A stretch of DNA of 64,000 nt. Source: an uncultured Ignavibacteriales bacterium. GTDB taxonomy: Bacteria; Bacteroidota; Ignavibacteria; Ignavibacteriales; Ignavibacteriaceae. The stretch's first letter is position 1. Every line of letters starts with the position of its first letter. The stretch covers positions 1,749,926-1,813,925 of the forward strand of contig CAWIAG010000004.1 of assembly GCA_963834015.1 (NCBI GenBank), written 5' to 3'. Below the pieces are notes generated by a model. It saw only the letters and a program-made list of their open reading frames with translations. It made no database searches and was not told the origin of the DNA. Of this stretch, positions 25,411-63,053 are shown in pieces. The position numbers were made by a program, and so were the translations under genes.

Positions 25411-25935
25411 ATGAAAAAACATTTGTAATTTTAGTTTTGCTAATATTTACATACACTGCGTGGGCACAGCCAATACGCCGGGCGGAATATCCGCGTCCTC
25501 AATTTGAGCGGAGTACGTGGATAAATCTTAACGGTACCTGGACTTATTCGTTTTATTTTGGTAATTCCGGCAAAAACAGGAATTTACAGGATAGTAAAGG
25601 TTTTGATGATAAAATTATTGTTCCTTTCTACCCGGAAAGTAAATTGCCCGGTGTTGAGCACAAAGACTTTATAAATAATATGTGGTACCAGCGTAAGATT
25701 TCAATTCCTGCCGGCTGGAGCAATAAAAATATCTTATTGAATTTCGGAGCAGTTTACTATCTGACCGAAGTTTATATCGACGGCAAATTTATAGGCCGGC
25801 ACTTCGGAGGGACGTCTTCATCAAAAAGTATTTGAAAAACGTTTTCACTACTGGGCAGATAAACTTGGTTACCTGACCTGGAGCGAGTTCTCAAGTTGGG
25901 GATCAGATTATAATAATGTAGAATATTATGAATAG
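25411..25935 (+). pseudogene. Decayed GH2 (beta-mannosidase/beta-galactosidase family) remnant: frameshifted start plus large internal deletion
   Basis: An ATG at 25411 is followed by an A6 run. Adding one A restores a perfect signal peptide, MKKTFVILVLLIFTYTAWAQ, continuous with the 25437..25835 ORF (GH2 sugar-binding N-domain motifs W...GxxxxLxFxGV...VYIDGKFIGRHFGG). A second frame at ~25845-25935 encodes ADKLGYLTWSEFSSWG, a fragment of the GH2 catalytic domain. No downstream remainder exists. Confidence 0.6.
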
Positions 25936-26443
25936 TCTGCAGCATGGTTAAAGGTTTGAAATACTCTACAATTATTTTGAATCTTTTCATCGAAGTTCAG
26001 TTTAAAAGCAATTTTAAAGCTTAATATTATAAAATTGCGTTCGATGTCCAGATAAAATAGATGAATCAAACGAAAATATTTTGTCAAAAAAAATGTGCTG
26101 ATTTTGTAGAAAAATAAATTTGCCAAACGAATCAAATTTTATTGCCGGAATACAGAAGTACCTCTGCAGCACTATGATCCAGGCAGGTAGATTTAAATCA
26201 ATAAAAAAAATGATGCTTATAAAGTAATTTAAGCTCATACTAAAGGAAGTGTGAAACATAGTTAAAAACTCTTAGTATTTCCTCTCTTTGTTTTTAACTA
26301 TCGAGAGGATTTTTTTTAAGACCGGGTGTTGAAGCAATCTTATTTATAGCATACATTATTAGAGAGAATTTTAAATTTTAAATACTATATCTCTATTTAT
26401 TAAACAATTATTAAATAATGAAAAAACAGATATAAAAATTATA

Positions 26444-52769: not shown

Positions 52770-55700
52770 ATGATTCGATCTATAGTACTGAGTTTTTTGT
52801 TTTGCAGTTTACTTCTTGCTTCATCCGGGGTTAAAGAGAGGCGTTATGCACCCGGCGAAATTATTATTAAATATGAAAAGGTAGGGCAAAGAGCAAGGGG
52901 GTCAGAGATAATAACCCAGCATAAAAGCTTTGTTGATAATTTAGAACTAAACATGAAGGGTTTAAAAATAAAAAGTTACTCTCCTGTTTTCAAAAGTTTA
53001 ATTAGGGAAATGACTGACAAAAATCTTACCGAGCAGGAGGTAGTTGAGAATAAAGCTGTTACCAAAAAAAATAAAACATCATCATCTTTTATTAAAAAAA
53101 TAACTTTCTCAAATATCCTTTTACTCAAAATTGATTCAGTAGCAGATATCTTAGAGTTAGCTTCAACTCTAAATAATAACCGAGATTTATTGGCCTCAGA
53201 GGGAATGAGAATTGTTTACGCCGAACCGAATTATTTAAAAAAGACAAGTGTAAACCCGAATGATCCTTTGTATCCTCTGCAATGGTCCTATCGAATAACT
53301 GATGTAGCTAATGCCTGGGATACTACGGAGGGAAGTCCTAATATTAAGATTGCAATTGTTGATACAGGAGTTGATCCAACACATCCGGATTTAATTGCAA
53401 ATCTTATTCAGGGCTATAATTTTGTTAATATCGATACAGACTACTACAAACAAGATTCTAATATAACCTTACTTCCGGGAGAAATTTATACGCAACCCGG
53501 ACCTAATTGTACCGACTATAATGGTCATGGGACTCACTGTGCAGGTATTGCTGCGGCAGCCGGAAATAATGGAATCGGAATTATCGGTGTAGCTCCAAAT
53601 TGTAAGATTATGCCTGTTAGAGCTGGTTTTAGTCTTATGGTTGATGGACAGGAGGAAGGTGTTCTTGAAACTACTTCTATCGTGGAAGGAATTAATTATG
53701 CAGTGGATAATGGTGCAAATGTAATTAGTATGAGTTTTGGTGGCGATAGTTCGAACCTTGAAGAAGAAGCTATTCAGAATGCTTATTACAACAATGTAGT
53801 CTTAGTTGCTGCTGCAGGGAACAACAGTTCATCTGAAAAGTTTTATCCGGCTGGATACAGTGAAGTATTAGCAATAACATCAGTAGATTCAACCAGGTCC
53901 GCTTCTTCATTTACTGAATATGGATATTGGACGTCTGTTGCAGCACCTGGAGAAAATATAATTTCAACTGTACCGTTAACTGGAGGTATCCTTACCGATC
54001 CATCCGGTTATAAGGTATTATCCGGAACTTCAATGGCGTCTCCTTTCGTTGCCGGTGAAGTTGCATTAATTTTATCGCACAATCCTTCTTTATCCAATAA
54101 TCTAATATATCAAATAGTCAGAACTGCAGTTAGTTCGTACTATGCGAGTAATAATTATATAGGTACCGGAATCGTTGATGTAGATAAAGCTTTTATAGGA
54201 ACCGGAGCTTGTATAGCAAAAATTACTGTTCCGTATAATATAAACAATCTGTATATATCCAAGGGAAATATAAGTATTTCCGGAAGAGCATCAGGGTTAT
54301 TATTCCGTAATTATTATTTGCAATACTCAGATTATCAAAATTCAACTGCGATCTGGCAGTCCGCAGGACAAATTTATACTACTCAGGTTGATAGCGGTTA
54401 CCTTGGAACTGTTAGTATAGCACAACCGGGGGTTTATTATATAAGGCTGGTAGTTACAAGCACTAACAATATACAGTATACAGATATAATCGGACCTGTT
54501 ACAGTTGATAACAGATTGAAATCCAATTGGCCGGTTTCAACAGGATCTCCCATCGGTTCTACGCCGGTACTTTCGGATATCTATGGGGACGGGAATGTTG
54601 AGGTAATATTTACAAGTTCAAACGGTGAAATCTATGTTGTAGATCAGAATGGCAATAATAAACCTGGCTGGCCTGTAACATTACCTAATTCCAGTTCTAA
54701 ATCCCAAGTTGGTTATACAAGCCCGGCAGTTGGGGATCTGGACAATGACGGTAAAAAAGAAATAGCAGTGAGAGACGGTCAGTTTATTTATGTATATAAA
54801 AATGATGGTACCATGAGGAATGGATGGCCGGTATCTTTAGGTACAAATATATTTTCGGGAAATGCAATAGTAGGCTCACCCACTATTGCTGATATTAATA
54901 ATGATGGTTATAAAGAAATACTTGTAACATCTCTTAATGGTAAAATATTTGCATTCGATCGTAATGGTTACATTATTTCCGGCTGGCCGGTATCAGTACC
55001 GATTAATTCTGTATGGGCTACTTTGTATTCAACTCCAGTAGTATCAGATATAAAAGGTGATGGTAACGTTGAAATAATAATCCAATGCATTGATGAGTCT
55101 TCCGCTAATTCTATTGGCTACCTATATGTATTTGATAATTTTGGAAATGTTCTTCCCGGCTGGCCGCAAACAATAGGAGGGGGATCATGGACTTCCCCTA
55201 TAACTGCAGATATAAACAATGATGGGCAAAATGAAATAATTGCATCTTCATTTTTGCCGTCCGGTTCTTCATCAGGTTCAATAGGTCTTTACGTTTTTAA
55301 TCCGGCCGGCAGCTTACTAAAAGGATTCCCTGTGCAGTTGAATGATGTGTCCTTTGGATATTATAATATTAAAGCAGGGCTGTCAGCCGGAGATATAAAT
55401 AATGACGGTTATAAAGAAATTATCGTTGCAAGCAGCCAATTGAATTCACTATGGGCGGTTGACAGAAATGGTAAAGTACTCTGGAATTCACAACCAAGCG
55501 AGCCATGGGAGTATAATTTTGCGTCGGTTCCAATTATTGCGGATATCAATAATGACGGCAAACCTGAAATATTAGTTTCTAAATACAATAATACAAATCA
55601 AACCGGCAAAATTATTGTTGTTAATAACACCGGGCAAATAATGGAAAGTCTTTCTTGTGTTCTTCCGGAACAGATATGGGCTACTCCTTCTATTGGTGAT

Positions 55701-57404
55701 ATTGAAGGGAATGGCAATCTCGAATTAATTTGCGGGTCTATTCAGGGCAACGTTTTTTGTTGGGACCTGGGTGTACCATTTGATACTACCTTGATGATCT
55801 GGCCTACATATCAGCAAAACTATCAGAGAACCGGGAGTATTGATCTGCTCAAAACCATACCTGCAGTTACTCATTTAACAGAGCCGCCAAATAATGCAGT
55901 TATTCAACCCGGGGAAATTACTTTTTCCTGGAATCCTGTCCCGGGAGCTCTTAAATATAATTTCGAACTATCTGATTCAATTTCTTTTAATGATATTATT
56001 TTTCAGGATACCTCAATGTCAGCAGTATCCCTTATAGTTGATTCAGTCCAGAGCAGCAGTAAGGGATTAAAGGCAGGTCTGAAAAACACCAGGACTGTAA
56101 GTGCAATTAAAAAGTTAATCACGAATGATAAAAAAATTATAGATCCCAAAAAACATCTAACAGGATTGAATGATGGTGTAAGGTATTATTGGAGAGTAGC
56201 TTCATTAGATTTGATAGGATCAAGTCCTTTTTCGGCAATAAATTCATTTTCTACAATTTTAAATGCACCCGGAACACTTTATGCCCTGGCGCTTCCTTCA
56301 GAAAGAGTAGTATTAAACTGGTCCGGTACATCAAACAATAACACGGGATTTATAATACAAAGGAAACTTTCTACAGATACTATCTACACTGTAATTGATA
56401 CTGTTAAAACAGATACAATCAGTTTTACAGATACAACATTGACATCAATAAATACGTATAATTACAGAATAGAGGCATATAATCAAATAGAAACTTCTGC
56501 ATTCAGCAATGTAGTAACAATAGCAACCCTTCCGCCTTACCCAGCCGCACCTACATTAATAGCTCCAATAAACAATGCATCTATCCTTACAGGTAGTTTA
56601 TATTTAAGCTGGATTAGTTCTGCGAATGCAAGCAGCTACCGGTTACAGGTCTCAACAGATTCGACATTTAAAACATTCTTTTTAAATGATTCGGTTCTTA
56701 CTACCACAACATTTCAGGTAACTAATCTGAGTGACGGCTTAAGATATTACTGGAGAGTAAATTCAAAAAATGTTACCGGAATAAGCATATATTCCGGGGT
56801 GAATTCATTTTCAACAATTTTAAATGCACCTCAAAATTTAAGTGCAATTGCAATGTGGGGTTACAAAGTATCACTTACCTGGATAGGCAAAAGCAATGAT
56901 GAATCTGGTTATATAATTGAACGCAAGCTTAGCAAGGATACTTCGTACACAATTATAGACTCATTAAAACTAAAGGTTACAAGTTTTACTGATTCATCGT
57001 TAACAGCAGTAAACACATATAATTATAGGATAACTGCATATAATGCTTTGGGTACTTCAGGATTCAGTAATGTTATAACTGTAAATACAATAACCTCGGT
57101 AGAAAATAAATCCCGTCAGATACCTGTGAACTATGAATTATCCCAAAACTTCCCCAACCCGTTTAATCCAATAACAGTAATAGAATATGGACTACCGGTA
57201 CAAAGCCGGGTAAAGATTGTAGTCTATAATATATTGGGAGAAGTTGTAAAAGAACTTGTAAATTCTGTTCAGAGTGCGGGATACCATTATATGGACTTTG
57301 GAGGGAACATGAGTTCAGGCGTATACTTCTATAAGATAGATGCAAAAGCCGTTAACAACTCAAGGCAGTTCATGCAAATTAAGAAAATGATGCTTTTAAA
57401 ATAA
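52770..57404 (+). CDS. T9SS-secreted S8 subtilisin-family peptidase with FG-GAP/VCBS-like beta-propeller repeats, FN3 repeats and a type-A Por C-terminal sorting domain
   Basis: Asp/His/Ser triad blocks IAIVDTGVD, HGTHCAGI and GTSMASP. About 10 repeats of the D(I/L)(N/D)(N/G)DG(Y/K)KEI type. FN3 modules with YYWRV. The C-terminus NFPNPFNPITVIEYGLP...YFYKIDAKA...KKMMLLK is a canonical T9SS CTD. Good RBS AAAGGAGAG. Confidence 0.9.
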   Translation: MIRSIVLSFLFCSLLLASSGVKERRYAPGEIIIKYEKVGQRARGSEIITQHKSFVDNLELNMKGLKIKSYSPVFKSLIREMTDKNLTEQEVVENKAVTKKNKTSSSFIKKITFSNILLLKIDSVADILELASTLNNNRDLLASEGMRIVYAEPNYLKKTSVNPNDPLYPLQWSYRITDVANAWDTTEGSPNIKIAIVDTGVDPTHPDLIANLIQGYNFVNIDTDYYKQDSNITLLPGEIYTQPGPNCTDYNGHGTHCAGIAAAAGNNGIGIIGVAPNCKIMPVRAGFSLMVDGQEEGVLETTSIVEGINYAVDNGANVISMSFGGDSSNLEEEAIQNAYYNNVVLVAAAGNNSSSEKFYPAGYSEVLAITSVDSTRSASSFTEYGYWTSVAAPGENIISTVPLTGGILTDPSGYKVLSGTSMASPFVAGEVALILSHNPSLSNNLIYQIVRTAVSSYYASNNYIGTGIVDVDKAFIGTGACIAKITVPYNINNLYISKGNISISGRASGLLFRNYYLQYSDYQNSTAIWQSAGQIYTTQVDSGYLGTVSIAQPGVYYIRLVVTSTNNIQYTDIIGPVTVDNRLKSNWPVSTGSPIGSTPVLSDIYGDGNVEVIFTSSNGEIYVVDQNGNNKPGWPVTLPNSSSKSQVGYTSPAVGDLDNDGKKEIAVRDGQFIYVYKNDGTMRNGWPVSLGTNIFSGNAIVGSPTIADINNDGYKEILVTSLNGKIFAFDRNGYIISGWPVSVPINSVWATLYSTPVVSDIKGDGNVEIIIQCIDESSANSIGYLYVFDNFGNVLPGWPQTIGGGSWTSPITADINNDGQNEIIASSFLPSGSSSGSIGLYVFNPAGSLLKGFPVQLNDVSFGYYNIKAGLSAGDINNDGYKEIIVASSQLNSLWAVDRNGKVLWNSQPSEPWEYNFASVPIIADINNDGKPEILVSKYNNTNQTGKIIVVNNTGQIMESLSCVLPEQIWATPSIGDIEGNGNLELICGSIQGNVFCWDLGVPFDTTLMIWPTYQQNYQRTGSIDLLKTIPAVTHLTEPPNNAVIQPGEITFSWNPVPGALKYNFELSDSISFNDIIFQDTSMSAVSLIVDSVQSSSKGLKAGLKNTRTVSAIKKLITNDKKIIDPKKHLTGLNDGVRYYWRVASLDLIGSSPFSAINSFSTILNAPGTLYALALPSERVVLNWSGTSNNNTGFIIQRKLSTDTIYTVIDTVKTDTISFTDTTLTSINTYNYRIEAYNQIETSAFSNVVTIATLPPYPAAPTLIAPINNASILTGSLYLSWISSANASSYRLQVSTDSTFKTFFLNDSVLTTTTFQVTNLSDGLRYYWRVNSKNVTGISIYSGVNSFSTILNAPQNLSAIAMWGYKVSLTWIGKSNDESGYIIERKLSKDTSYTIIDSLKLKVTSFTDSSLTAVNTYNYRITAYNALGTSGFSNVITVNTITSVENKSRQIPVNYELSQNFPNPFNPITVIEYGLPVQSRVKIVVYNILGEVVKELVNSVQSAGYHYMDFGGNMSSGVYFYKIDAKAVNNSRQFMQIKKMMLLK

Positions 57405-57459
57405 CGACAAATGTCGCCTCAGAAACAGTTAAATTTAGAAAGAACAACTGAGGTGACAA

Positions 57460-58302
57460 ATGGAAATAAGGAGGACGATATTAAATAGAAGGCAAACAAA
57501 AAGTTCGGAAGGAGAGTTCATCTATGAGTTAGAGAACTCGTATGAGCTCTCTCCGAAATTAAGTGAATCGATATTAGTAACAGCAAAAGAATGTTTGCTA
57601 AGAGACCACCAATTGAAAGAAGGCCAGATAGAAGTAACGGTAATAGAAATAGAACAGAAAGCAGGACAAGTAATAGAGAAGCTGGAAAAGAAGAAAGTAA
57701 GATTGACCATAGACAATGGAATTGAAGATATAGAAGTAATAAAAGGATATGGTCTGATATCACTACGGCAAATAAAAATAGAAAGGATAACCGAAGAAGC
57801 GATAGAACAAGGAGGAGTATTAAGCCAGGAAGATTTGGGAAAATATTTAGGATGTACGGTAAGGACAATCCAACGGGATATAAAGCAGATAAAGAAGAAA
57901 GGGATAGAAGTAGTAACAAGAGGATATCTACATAATATAGGCAGAGGTCAAACACATAAGGTAAAGATAATAGGGCTGTATTTAGACGGACAAACGTACA
58001 GCGAAATAAAGTTAAGTACAAAACACAGTGTGGGAGCTATAAAAAGATATTTAGGAAGCTTCGTAAAAGTATTGATGTCACAAAGCAGAGGGATATACGG
58101 GACAAAAGATATAAGCATAGTAACAGGGATAAGCGAGGTATTAGTAAAGCAATATGCAGAGTTGATAAGGGAAAGTAAGAAGGATAAGACAAGGAGAGAG
58201 AATTTAAAGCAATTGGTAGAGAGAAGCAGCTATAGGGAAGGGATAAAAAAAACAGTAAAGAGCTATTCAGAGCCTCTGGCAGCTATGATGGGAGGCTTAT
58301 AA
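57460..58302 (+). CDS. Lys/Glu/Arg-rich protein with several HTH-like modules (possibly DUF1670-like); hypothetical DNA-binding protein
   Basis: 280 aa with repeated modules of the form LSQEDLGKYLGCTVRTIQRDIKQIKKKGIEV, TYSEIKLSTKHSVGAIKRYLGSFVK and DISIVTGISEVLVKQYAELIRE (resolvase/Tc1-type HTH pattern). GGAGG RBS. Confidence 0.7.
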   Translation: MEIRRTILNRRQTKSSEGEFIYELENSYELSPKLSESILVTAKECLLRDHQLKEGQIEVTVIEIEQKAGQVIEKLEKKKVRLTIDNGIEDIEVIKGYGLISLRQIKIERITEEAIEQGGVLSQEDLGKYLGCTVRTIQRDIKQIKKKGIEVVTRGYLHNIGRGQTHKVKIIGLYLDGQTYSEIKLSTKHSVGAIKRYLGSFVKVLMSQSRGIYGTKDISIVTGISEVLVKQYAELIRESKKDKTRRENLKQLVERSSYREGIKKTVKSYSEPLAAMMGGL

Positions 58303-59105
58303 TGAGTTTGAACCAGACAAGGGACAGATATGAAAGCATAAACAAAAGGAACTTTCATAATGCGATAATAAATTTATTAGAGAATGAATACAAACTGCTG
58401 GGTTCAAGAAAAGTGTTGGAGATGTTGGCCGATGATATAGGGGATCTTCATAGAGAATATTACCCTGGAAAAAATCAAGTAGGATTTGGAGAGATAGTAT
58501 TCACAACAACAAAAGACGATGGACAAAGGCAGAGCTATGGCAAGAAGACGGAAGATTATGCAACAATAACATTAGCTTTGCCATTGATAACGAAGGAAGA
58601 TGTAGAAAGAAGGATATATTTTAAGAAAGGCGACAGAAATAGTAATTATCGACATAGAGAAGCCAGAGACATAGAAACCATGGTAAGATTATTAAAGAGT
58701 GCAAAAACTCAAGGAGGACTATTAAGTGGGGCCGAGTTGAGTATGCTGATGAATCGGAGCTTAAGTACTATACGGAAATACCTGGATGCATATAGAGAGA
58801 AGACGGGAGAGATATTACCATTAAAAGGATATGTATTAGATCAAGGGAGTTTGCCTACGCACAAAGGAATAATAGTCAGTTTGTACGAGCAAGGAATTTC
58901 ACCGGCAGACATAGTACTAAAGACCGGTCACAGTCAGGATGCAGTAGACAGATATATTAAGCATTATGAACAAGTAAAGAAACTGATAAGAAAAGGATTG
59001 ACGGAAGAATCAATACAAGAAATAACAGGCAGGTCGATGAAAGTTATTAAAGAATATATTAAGTTGTACAAAGATCTTAATCCTGTAAGTGAACTGAATA
59101 AGTAA
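58302..59105 (+). CDS. Paralog of the upstream gene: multi-HTH protein (possibly DUF1670-like)
   Basis: 267 aa. N-terminus alignable with the upstream protein (ENEYKLLGSRKVLEML...GEIVFTTTKDDG versus ENSYELSPKLSESILV...GQIEVTVIEIEQKAG). HTH-like modules LSGAELSMLMNRSLSTIRKYLDAYREKTG, ISPADIVLKTGHSQDAVDRYIKHY and SIQEITGRSMKVIKEYIKLY. Start overlaps the upstream stop (TAATG). Confidence 0.7.
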   Translation: MSLNQTRDRYESINKRNFHNAIINLLENEYKLLGSRKVLEMLADDIGDLHREYYPGKNQVGFGEIVFTTTKDDGQRQSYGKKTEDYATITLALPLITKEDVERRIYFKKGDRNSNYRHREARDIETMVRLLKSAKTQGGLLSGAELSMLMNRSLSTIRKYLDAYREKTGEILPLKGYVLDQGSLPTHKGIIVSLYEQGISPADIVLKTGHSQDAVDRYIKHYEQVKKLIRKGLTEESIQEITGRSMKVIKEYIKLYKDLNPVSELNK

Positions 59106-59175
59106 AAAAATACCAGGCGACAAATGTCGTAATAGTAAATAACCAATTATGTGAGGCCATTTTATATGTTTAAAG

Positions 59176-59212
59176 TTGGAGAGTTGGGGCATGCCCCGGC
59201 TTTACAACACTA
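59176..59212. repeat. Module B-like copy GAGAGTTGGGGCATGCCCCGGCTTTACAACAC
   Basis: GGGGCATGCCCC palindromic core with ...CTTTAC... arm, as in the other B copies. Confidence 0.4.
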
Positions 59213-62600: not shown

Positions 62601-63053
62601 ATAACCGGGTCAGCAAGCGGAAACCTCTATTGCTGGGAATTGGGTTCCCCTTATGATTCTTCAATGTTAATCTGGCCCACATATCAGCAGAATTACCAGC
62701 GGACTGGCGGTTTTGGGGTGCAGACCAATGTACCAACGGCTATAGCCGCCGGCAATAATAGTAAATTACCTGCTGAATATTCAATCCGGCAGAATTACCC
62801 TAACCCGTTTAACCCTGCGACGGTAGTAGAATATGGATTGCCGGTACAAAGCCGTGTAAAGATAGTTGTTTATAATATATTGGGTGAATTTGTAAAAGAA
62901 ATTGTTAATTCGGTGCAAGGTGCTGGTTATTATAATGTAAACTTCGAAGGAGGTAATCTTAGTTCGGGAGTTTATTTATATAAAATAGATGCAAAAGCCG
63001 TTAATGGTTCAAGAGAATTCACGCAAATAAAGAAAATGATGCTTCTAAAATAA
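59625..63053 (+). CDS. Second T9SS-secreted S8 peptidase / FG-GAP propeller protein (paralog of 52770..57404 lacking the ~400-aa FN3 block)
   Basis: Same catalytic blocks (IAIIDTGVD, HGTHCAGI, GTSMATP) and repeats, and a CTD NYPNPFNPATVVEYGLP...YLYKIDAKA...KKMMLLK. About 75-80% identity to paralog 1 over aligned parts, as judged by eye. Confidence 0.9.
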   Translation: MMLRKLLISIIFSGIVLVGQTIKDIKYVPGEIIIKYEKTGQSARGSDIITEHQNFVDNLKLSMKELKINSYSPVFKSIVEEMTEKNLTEKEVIQHKTLNRKNIITLSRIKKTTFSNILLLKIDPAVDIKEAALSLINNPDMLASQGIRIVYAEPNYLKRTSITPNDPLYTQQWSHRITNIEKAWDTTEGSPNIKIAIIDTGVDPAHPDLMANLITGHNFVDIDTNYYKLFATLLQGEIYTQPGTNCTDYNGHGTHCAGIAAAVGNNGIGVIGAAPNCKIMPVRAGFSILVDDQEYGVLETATVVQAINYAVYNGANVISMSFGGDSSSLEEETIQNAYYNNVVLVAAAGNNDFAAKQYPGGYNEVLAITSIDSIQNWSTFSNYGLWTAIAAPGENIESTVPLKGGAICDSTGYRVLSGTSMATPYIAGVAALVLSHDSSMSNNLVYQTLRSSVNPAYSSPYYIGTGIIDGSKLFSGSIACISKITAPDNISNLYIVNGNINISGRASGKLFSNYTFEYSDYQRVTPDWQPTGQTFSTPVDSGLLGTVKITQNGIYYIRLKVTSTNNLVYSDIIGPVTIDTRLKANWSVSTGAPVSSSPVLCDIDGDGNVETIFTSSNGGIYVLYQYGNNKPGWPVFTSNIYYGRSVLGSCSPTVGDLDNNGKKEIVVRDGRYIYVYNSDGSLRSPWPIDLSGDSLGYISGNALYGSPAITDLNNDGYKEIIVTYLDGNIFAFDRFGKAVHGYPVRVPTKYMWATVYSTPVVSDLNGDGKIDVIIQSCEASTSISKGYIYVFDRWGNVLPGWPEQFGLGSVNSPITVDLNNDGKNEIIASSFLRADSANSLGYFGIYAFNSEGNVLTGFPVLLTDSVSGYYNLSGGISAGDINNDGYKEILVAGSGGKYSLWAINRYGKILWSSLPSEPGEYNSGSVPVIADINNNGTPEILVSKYNQNNQTGKILVVNNTGQIMESLSCVIPEFLFASPSIGDIEGNHKLELITGSASGNLYCWELGSPYDSSMLIWPTYQQNYQRTGGFGVQTNVPTAIAAGNNSKLPAEYSIRQNYPNPFNPATVVEYGLPVQSRVKIVVYNILGEFVKEIVNSVQGAGYYNVNFEGGNLSSGVYLYKIDAKAVNGSREFTQIKKMMLLK

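Follow-up and report, generated by a model that had tools for sequence, protein, structure and literature searches.

A DUF1670 gene pair in a probable insertion-sequence-like element family that targets the 3′ ends of type IX secretion sorting-domain genes

The Locus

We analyzed 64,000 nucleotides of contig CAWIAG010000004.1 from an uncultured Ignavibacteriales bacterium (this whole stretch is called the window, and is numbered from its first base), and focused on a 1.7-kb cassette that lies between two paralogous protease genes and carries two genes of the DUF1670 family, orfA and orfB. The upstream neighbor, protease 1, is a 1544-aa S8-type protein (52770-57404) whose C-terminal 100 aa match TIGR04183, the type A sorting domain of the type IX secretion system (T9SS). 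The features of the cassette and its borders, named according to the interpretation developed below, are as follows.

57381..57398, + strand: host target, AAG AAA ATG ATG CTT TTA (K K M M L L), the end of the protease 1 sorting domain; host DNA adjoining the element's left
57399..57404, + strand: left-end hexamer AAATAA, Lys and stop from the element, now terminating the protease open reading frame (ORF); junction at or within the first two A's (57399-57400)
57405..57419, + strand: left terminal inverted repeat, the palindrome CGACAAATGTCG (57405-57416) plus CCT
57412..57458, + strand: hairpin in the 5′ untranslated region (UTR), in which 57412-57422 pairs with 57448-57458
57460..58302, + strand: orfA, 280-aa DUF1670 protein (PF07900, E 4.6e-46, 157.4 bits), with an HTH_11 match
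58302..59105, + strand: orfB, 267-aa DUF1670 protein (PF07900, E 1.3e-49, 169.0 bits)
59115..59129, + strand: right terminal inverted repeat, AGG plus the palindrome CGACAAATGTCG (59118-59129)
59130..59136, + strand: element-borne 7-mer TAATAGT (family form YWATAGT) outside the right palindrome, the last constant element bases, constant in all copies whatever the flank
59137..59142, + strand: AAATAA, the Lys-stop that ended the host gene before insertion, now lying beyond the right end; right junction at or within the first two A's

Both proteins match PF07900 (gathering score, 25 bits) over nearly the full length of the model and are members of DUF1670. An earlier, sequence-only reading of this DNA had suggested a resemblance to that family, and our profile hidden Markov model check bore it out; the same reading had described two paralogs built of helix-turn-helix (HTH) modules and lacking a recognizable recombinase domain, which agrees with our Pfam and NCBIfam searches. 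OrfA and OrfB are 30% identical over their C-terminal 130 aa (E 1e-12). The two genes, the only ones in the element, overlap by a single base (TAATG), and orfB is translationally coupled to orfA.

The 12-mer CGACAAATGTCG occurs exactly twice in the window, with no further site at one mismatch and 0.14 occurrences expected by chance. Its left copy directly follows the stop codon of protease 1, as had been claimed; the right copy, previously put at 59119-59130 and 14 nt beyond the orfB stop, in fact starts 12 nt after that stop (59103-59105) and occupies 59118-59129. The extended flanks had also been called inverted complements of each other, and indeed, when AGGCGACAAATGTCG (59115-59129) is reverse-complemented, 13 of its 15 positions agree with CGACAAATGTCGCCT (57405-57419), the exception being the central AA/TT.

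Near-Identical Copies Lie at Different Sites

Close copies of the cassette were found at many sites, including several within single long-read, species-representative genomes. The metagenome-assembled genome (MAG) CAVXRO has six of them on five large contigs, 98.7-99.7% identical over ~1760-1810 bp, and the long-read Cloacimonadales MAG CAXXPU has at least nine on large contigs, 98.8-99.9% identical over ~1850 bp; within each genome the flanks are all different. Each of these genomes therefore shows what is generally expected of an insertion sequence (IS), several near-identical copies at different sites. In addition, an element 99.9-100% identical to the window copy occurs elsewhere, in different samples, with two further right flanks (L005, L009). 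The metagenome relatives of each protein number more than 1000 at about 80-93% identity (1016 for orfA), and a large share of them are on contigs as long as the cassette itself (1737-1745 bp). These element-sized contigs start with AAATAA-CGACA... and end with ...TAATAGTAAATA (...GTAAATA), the usual outcome when a dispersed repeat is assembled. Comparison of all these copies identifies the cassette as mobile and multicopy, as the sequence-only reading had suspected.

Alignment of the copies gives an element of 1738 bp, extending in the window from 57399 to 59136 or from 57401 to 59138, with host DNA restarting at 59137 or 59139. The ambiguity is the AA dinucleotide itself, which sets the limit on placing the junctions; no finer resolution is possible. 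Both genes are under strong purifying selection, with dN/dS of 0.08-0.20 for orfA and 0.04-0.07 for orfB among diverged copies in which synonymous sites are saturated.

Ends of the Element

Within-genome alignments of copies have sharp boundaries and a fixed order of parts. From left to right there is a hexamer that reads either AAATAG or AAATAA; a 12-bp palindrome with the pattern nnnCA(A/T)(A/T)TGnnn; CCT; and the two genes. These are followed by AGG, a 12-bp palindrome, the constant 7-mer (C/T)(A/T)AT(A/G)GT, and a second hexamer, AARTRR. The center of the palindrome is AA, TT or AT depending on the copy, and the arms remain complementary. At all six CAVXRO sites the left 12-mer is TGCCATTTGGCA and the right one is TGCCAAATGGCC; other subfamilies have the arms CGACA, GGACA, TGACA or TGTCA, and in these the 12-mer of the left end is not that of the right, but each stays constant across copies at different sites. 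Dyad symmetry is maintained across subfamilies by seven compensatory cells, a value reached by one of 500 shuffles.

By this comparison the 12-mers are borne by the element and are the palindromic cores of terminal inverted repeats of ~15 bp, which are present in all subfamilies and, with the sharp boundaries, give the defined ends typical of an IS. That the two ends are related by inversion is evident from the outer, mismatched positions; the 12-mer appears as an exact direct repeat in the window because its palindrome is perfect and both centers happen to be AA. The 12-mers had been read as marking the ends of the cassette, and they do. They had also been suggested to be att sites, but their constancy across insertion sites and their left-right differences in other subfamilies show that they are not.

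The two hexamers behave differently. The left one is always AAATAA or AAATAG (38 of 38 sites), never with an AAG codon or a TGA stop, and it is constant within an element lineage, being AAATAG in 6/6 CAVXRO and 9/9 CAXXPU copies. The right one varies among copies that are about 99-100% identical, and yet it is always a Lys codon followed by a stop codon (AAATAA 17, AAATAG 9, AAGTAG 5, AAGTAA 5, AAATGA 3, AAGTGA 2). Left and right agree in only 8 of 36 copies. A constant left hexamer and a variable right hexamer that always reads Lys-stop imply that the right one is the original Lys-stop of the host gene. On this evidence the element supplies a new Lys-stop (AAATAR) at its left end and leaves the predicted host protein unchanged. 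No target-site duplication exceeding 2 bp is present, and at most the AA dinucleotide could be duplicated. We also considered a 6-bp or 12-bp target duplication and ruled it out, since the 12-mers are constant within subfamilies and differ between left and right, and the hexamers disagree in 28 of 36 copies.

The Target Is the 3′ End of Sorting-Domain Genes

To define the target we used 38 distinct left flanks, counted as independent insertions. In 37 of these the element is co-oriented and in frame, directly after an ORF that ends ...[KR]-K-M-[ILVM]-L-[LMIV]. Ten upstream ORF ends were compared with TIGR04183 (Por_Secre_tail), and nine, including that of the window protease, scored above the 23-bit cut-off; the tenth was the off-target exception described below. 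At the nucleotide level the 38 sites give the logo AARAARATGnTnYTnnTn followed by the hexamer AARTRR, a target string of the ...KKMxLLK-stop type (...AAGAAAATGATGCTTTTAAAATAA). The right flanks show no conservation, and the base preceding the left hexamer is variable. The alignments place insertion, always in the same orientation, after the last Leu-type codon of sorting-domain genes and before their final Lys codon (...KKMxLLK-stop).

The exception (L053, 2080-2106) is an insertion at the end of hcp, a gene for hydroxylamine reductase, again at the last codon (..ENMMAGK-stop), where the DNA reads AAAACATGATGGCAGGG|AAATAG. Because this DNA resembles and partly matches the target consensus, the element seems to recognize DNA rather than protein function. 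The consensus itself has three matches in the window, where none is expected, and two target-like sites there are unoccupied.

63033..63053, + strand: unoccupied target-like site AAAATGATGCTTCTAAAATAA, a consensus match at the end of protease 2
26207..26227, + strand: target-like site AAAATGATGCTTATAAAGTAA, also unoccupied, where a disrupted (frameshifted) sorting-domain ORF (25437-26227) ends

The natural host hexamer at 26207-26227 is AAGTAA, a type never seen at the left end of an element.

Taken together, these comparisons lead us to conclude, with a probability of roughly 0.7, that the cassette is one copy of an undescribed, multicopy family of IS-like elements that takes the 3′ end of sorting-domain genes as its target and carries its own Lys-stop.

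A Hairpin Spans the 5′ Untranslated Region

The 3′ half of the left palindrome and the adjoining anti-Shine-Dalgarno sequence CCTCAG form the 5′ arm of a hairpin, whose 3′ arm consists of CTGAGG (the orfA Shine-Dalgarno sequence) and TGACA. In the window its RNA has a minimum free energy of -17.1 kcal/mol (z -5.4). Among 15 subfamily sequences, pairing holds in 91% of cells and nine cells are compensatory, and none of 500 shuffles reaches the observed value; the compensatory switches include CCUCAG/CUGAGG, CCUCGU/ACGAGG and CCUCAA/UUGAGG. In more distant clades the pairing partners are other complementary sequences, and an anti-Shine-Dalgarno stem is present in the P0418 clade as well.

A box in the loop, TAAATTT(G/A), is conserved at 57430-57438 and at homologous positions. 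We take it to resemble the -7 promoter element of Bacteroidota (TAnnTTTG), and it may be the element's own promoter. Scans for sigma-70 promoters and terminators gave nothing above background, and no terminator-like site was found before the element. Because the element directly follows the host stop codon and no such site precedes it, read-through transcription from the host gene is likely. The hairpin would keep orfA untranslated on these read-through transcripts, and a transcript initiating inside the loop would be translatable. In IS10 and IS50, likewise, a hairpin silences the transposase gene on read-through transcripts. A search of the element against Rfam for a structured RNA or ribozyme gave no hit at E ≤1.

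The DUF1670 Proteins

An AlphaFold2 model of OrfB (78-sequence alignment, pLDDT 87) predicts an N-terminal domain (residues 1-117) of three helices, a β-hairpin and a helix, then a winged HTH (119-168) and two three-helix HTH modules (187-230 and 235-260). As modeled, the N-terminal domain is α/β and of unknown fold. The invariant or near-invariant residues of the family are G63, R129, P173, G176, D180, G182, H187, K188, H210, Y218 and Y252 in OrfB, many of them in a conserved motif, LPxRGxxHDxGxxxTHK...HSxxxVDRYI, and OrfA retains counterparts of the R, RG, G, HK and H residues and of both tyrosines, among them H166, K167, H189 and Y197.

No recognizable transposase of the DDE, DEDD, HUH, Ser or Tyr type was found in the element, a respect in which it departs from a conventional IS. 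Fold searches returned HTH modules only, and PHROGs, PADLOC and NCBIfam gave only weak HTH matches. Nor do the genes fit an anti-phage defense model: PADLOC gave a weak WYL-HTH match for orfA (E 7.5e-4) and none for orfB. The sole sequence match among solved structures, 8vd6, was set aside as irrelevant, being a de novo designed helical repeat.

Relation to Known Systems

DUF1670 (PF07900), which both proteins match end to end, has no assigned function; the mobile context, the ends and the target described here are new information about it. Several known systems share parts of this picture. Like IS630/Tc1-mariner elements, the cassette has terminal inverted repeats, tandem HTH modules (orfB has weak HTH_23/HTH_29 and IS630-model matches) and a fixed dinucleotide. 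Unlike them it has no DDE domain (NF033545, 19.8 bits against a cut-off of 100, over the HTH part only), its dinucleotide is AA rather than TA, its target is ~24 bp long and gene-specific, and it has extra element bases outside the inverted repeats; it falls outside that family. It also falls outside the small serine recombinases and IS607-type elements, as no resolvase catalytic domain is detectable by sequence or fold and the N-terminal domain lacks a conserved serine. With IS110/IS1111 it shares insertion that is site- and orientation-specific, uses a repeated sequence of the host and produces little duplication or none. However, it has no DEDD transposase, no Rfam hit and no circle junction that we could find, and its only non-coding parts, a 55-nt 5′ UTR and 12 nt after orfB, leave no room for a guide or bridge RNA, so that it cannot be assigned to this group.

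The likeness to IS200/IS605 lies in the absence of duplication, the strict orientation, the palindromes by both ends and a target-like motif at one end. Here too assignment fails: there is no Y1 HUH TnpA, the hairpins of the element are very short and weak, and the target is much longer. Finally, integrative islands whose integrases target tRNA, tmRNA or protein genes and which restore the 3′ end of the targeted gene also carry a replacement gene end and leave the target product unchanged. The differences are that only two codons are replaced here, that the element is 1.7 kb with inverted-repeat ends and no tyrosine or serine integrase, and that its target is a multicopy gene class rather than a single locus.

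In the literature that we searched we found no mention of DUF1670/PF07900, and nothing linking T9SS sorting domains with IS targeting. The element would give a first biological context to DUF1670, a family that numbers at least 773 clusters at 50% identity and has thousands of copies in metagenomes from sediment, soil and bioreactors, and would represent an IS-like family that is invisible to standard, transposase-based annotation. Its choice of target is unusual, the conserved last codons of T9SS cargo genes forming a multicopy "safe harbor." The element also has a practical consequence, in that it breaks assemblies and its 1.7-kb contigs are mis-binned in unrelated MAGs, including "archaeal" ones. 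If the two small proteins do carry out the chemistry, they would be a new recombinase class with a long, programmable-looking site, of interest to mobile-DNA biology and genome engineering alike.

A Proposed Mechanism and Its Alternatives

In the mechanism that we propose, OrfA and OrfB would act together, probably as a heteromer and possibly as A2B2. Joint action is supported by natural fusions, A-B proteins of 532-546 aa (P0200, P0205, P0224) and proteins of 930-952 aa with at least three DUF1670 units (P0153, P0156, P0158, P0165), none of which contains another Pfam domain. The proteins would bind the dyad-symmetric ends through their resolvase/Hin-like and winged HTH modules and capture a target whose best-conserved part, AAnATG, resembles the palindrome half-site CAAATG. 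The AA dinucleotide, or a position next to it, would be where DNA is exchanged; either a 2-bp crossover or a 2-bp staggered cut would fit. We suggest tentatively that the DUF1670 pair could itself be a new kind of transposase or site-specific recombinase, made of HTH modules and a small domain of unknown fold. Its active site may consist of the family-invariant His187/Lys188, His210 and Arg217-Tyr218 of one HTH module; the catalytic tyrosine of type II topoisomerases and Spo11, which lies on a winged-helix domain, is an analogy in principle. Just as speculatively, such a recombinase would make a scarless 1.7-kb insertion at a ~24-bp target with an exchange region of at most 2 bp.

A number of points weigh against these proposals or against the conclusion that the cassette is a mobile element. 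Besides DUF1670, searches of Pfam and NCBIfam with orfA and orfB found only HTH matches and no catalytic domain, and Foldseek against the PDB returned nothing at E <0.3. The conserved His, Lys, Arg and Tyr may be DNA contacts rather than catalytic residues, since the invariant positions presumably match those of the recognition helix and the minor-groove arm in HTH domains of the Hin/resolvase type. The evidence for mobility is comparative, and most of it is drawn from MAGs and metagenome contigs, in which repeats can give chimeric joins of the kind seen in loci of distant clades. In JGI metagenome contigs we found neither an empty allele of the window locus (its two flanks separated by 0-30 nt) nor a circle or tandem junction (the right end joined through AAATAR to the left end). 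Logan contigs that consist of the element alone begin and finish at the element ends and are not circularly permuted, and this, together with the empty junction search, means that there is no sign of abundant circles. We also tried protease 2 as a proxy for an empty site, and the DNA 3′ of it could not be aligned by eye with the right flank of the element.

Chemistry by a recruited host enzyme is about as probable, in our estimate, as catalysis by the DUF1670 pair itself. The sequence-only reading had proposed, among other options, that the cassette is non-autonomous. We give appreciably less weight to a version of this idea in which it is cargo, with a conventional transposase or recombinase elsewhere (a master element or a host Xer-type enzyme) acting on the ends and OrfA and OrfB riding as passengers, for example as regulators. 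The absence of a catalytic fold in either protein would fit this idea, as would a gene-less 286-bp derivative with like ends (L033, 315-601), which implies that ends can be propagated without the genes in cis. A passenger would not, however, be kept this uniformly: even diverged copies keep both genes intact and under strong constraint, the relatives of each number more than 1000, and the two-gene unit co-varies with palindromic ends across clades that are ~25-30% identical and have different targets. Moreover, no other gene is common to the flanks, and the 1.7-kb unit has no room for more. The miniature exists alongside the full element, and we regard the window copy as unlikely to be non-autonomous.

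Single-strand "peel-and-paste" transposition of the IS200/IS605 type would make the 12-mers subterminal hairpins, acted on by a Y1 HUH protein in trans or by OrfA and OrfB as a non-canonical equivalent. The geometry fits, with strict orientation, no duplication, a target-like hexamer at one end and the real target at the other flank, and so does the preservation of palindrome symmetry by compensatory changes. We nevertheless consider it improbable, given that no HUH/Y1 domain was found in Pfam or NCBIfam, that the single-stranded right-end hairpin is a marginal 5 bp (-2.8 kcal/mol, z -1.6), and that the conserved target is 18 nt, compared with 4-5 nt in IS200/IS605, and lies on the side of the element-borne hexamer. 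Least credible of all is a resident two-gene operon that regulates the tandem protease locus or directs its recombination, flanked by a chance repeat. This idea drew on the all-HTH proteins and on the position of the cassette between two paralogous protease genes, which had been thought meaningful. But the same cassette, sharply bounded and about 99-100% identical between copies, is found behind dozens of unrelated sorting-domain genes and in one case behind hcp, and the 12-mer belongs to conserved inverted-repeat ends. These many unrelated sites refute a regulator pair for the flanking proteases, and the placement between paralogs is incidental to a target that can be the 3′ end of any T9SS sorting-domain gene.

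Distribution of the Family

At E ≤1e-3 the DUF1670 family comprises 773 representatives at 50% clustering. The clades P0396, P0418 and P0451, ~25-30% identical to OrfB, have two overlapping DUF1670 genes in contexts without sorting domains and with other flanks. Palindromes of the GGnCAnnTGnCC type adjoin both ends in the P0396 and P0418 clades and the left end in P0451, where the right end was not reached. The presence of the two-gene unit and the palindromes in such distant clades implies that a broad family of elements has the DUF1670 pair as its hallmark. On the loci compared, sorting-domain targeting is a specialty of the subfamily found in Ignavibacteriota, Bacteroidota and Cloacimonadota.

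The closest relatives of the window element are in MAGs of these same three phyla. This, and a G+C content equal to that of the host (36%), give no indication of the recent foreign or archaeal origin that had been raised. Plasmid and phage collections contained no homolog of the element proteins. Several element-only or very short contigs (L013, L014, L027, L030, L041, and those of proteins P0070 and P0344) are binned in MAGs labeled archaeon, Nanoarchaeota, Arcobacter or Syntrophaceae, and one of them, L014, still has a T9SS sorting-domain fragment upstream of the element. These labels are probably binning artifacts of a high-copy repeat.

In the P0396 clade, loci L078-L084 contain identical elements whose left and right flanks recur in shuffled pairings, the result either of assembly chimerism at the repeat or of recombination between copies. 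In L076 (Anaerolineae) the DUF1670 genes are degraded and uninformative.

Purine Loading and an Antisense ORF

The coding strand of the cassette had been described as purine-loaded, and it is, strongly so. Across 57400-59200 both GC skew and AT skew are 0.26-0.46, compared with about 0-0.2 elsewhere. Purine content is 70% in orfA and 65% in orfB, compared with 46-59% in the 30 other window ORFs of at least 150 aa, and at third codon positions it is 0.78 and 0.66, respectively, compared with 0.42-0.56. Purine loading of 64-70% is a property of Ignavibacteria-type copies (window 57460-59105) and is absent from Cloacimonadales copies (55%; L052, 2107-3930), and it is therefore not intrinsic to the element family. 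The Leu/Ser-rich antisense ORF that had been reported does exist.

57518..58021, - strand: antisense Leu/Ser-rich ORF, 167 aa, a by-product of the pyrimidine-poor sense strand, not counted as a gene

Miniature, Solo and Degenerate Units

The gene-less unit in L033 (~286 bp, without DUF1670 genes) has the left end AAATAA GGACAATTGTCC and the right end GGACAAATGTTT TAATAGT AAATAA. It lies directly after the end of a sorting-domain ORF (..NKMVLV) and has the look of a miniature inverted-repeat transposable element.

Two solo units of 25 nt, GGAAGATCTTCC and GGAAAATTTTCC, consist of a perfect 12-bp palindrome followed by TAATAGT and AAATAG (L017, 3841-3865; L072, minus strand, ~3453). The one in L072 follows the Lys-stop of a sorting-domain ORF, and the one in L017 follows the right-end hexamer of a full element. 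Their palindromes are unlike those of any full element that we have seen, and they are candidates for excision scars, relics or minimal elements.

The DNA 3′ of some right ends resembles the left end of another, degenerate element (L029, 3835-3875; L017, 3860-3900; L067, 3844-3885), reading AAATAG TATCAAATGATACC... in L029 and L017 and ...TTGGCACCTCAATAATGGAT in L067. Such an arrangement fits repeated insertion at a target that would be regenerated at the left junction.

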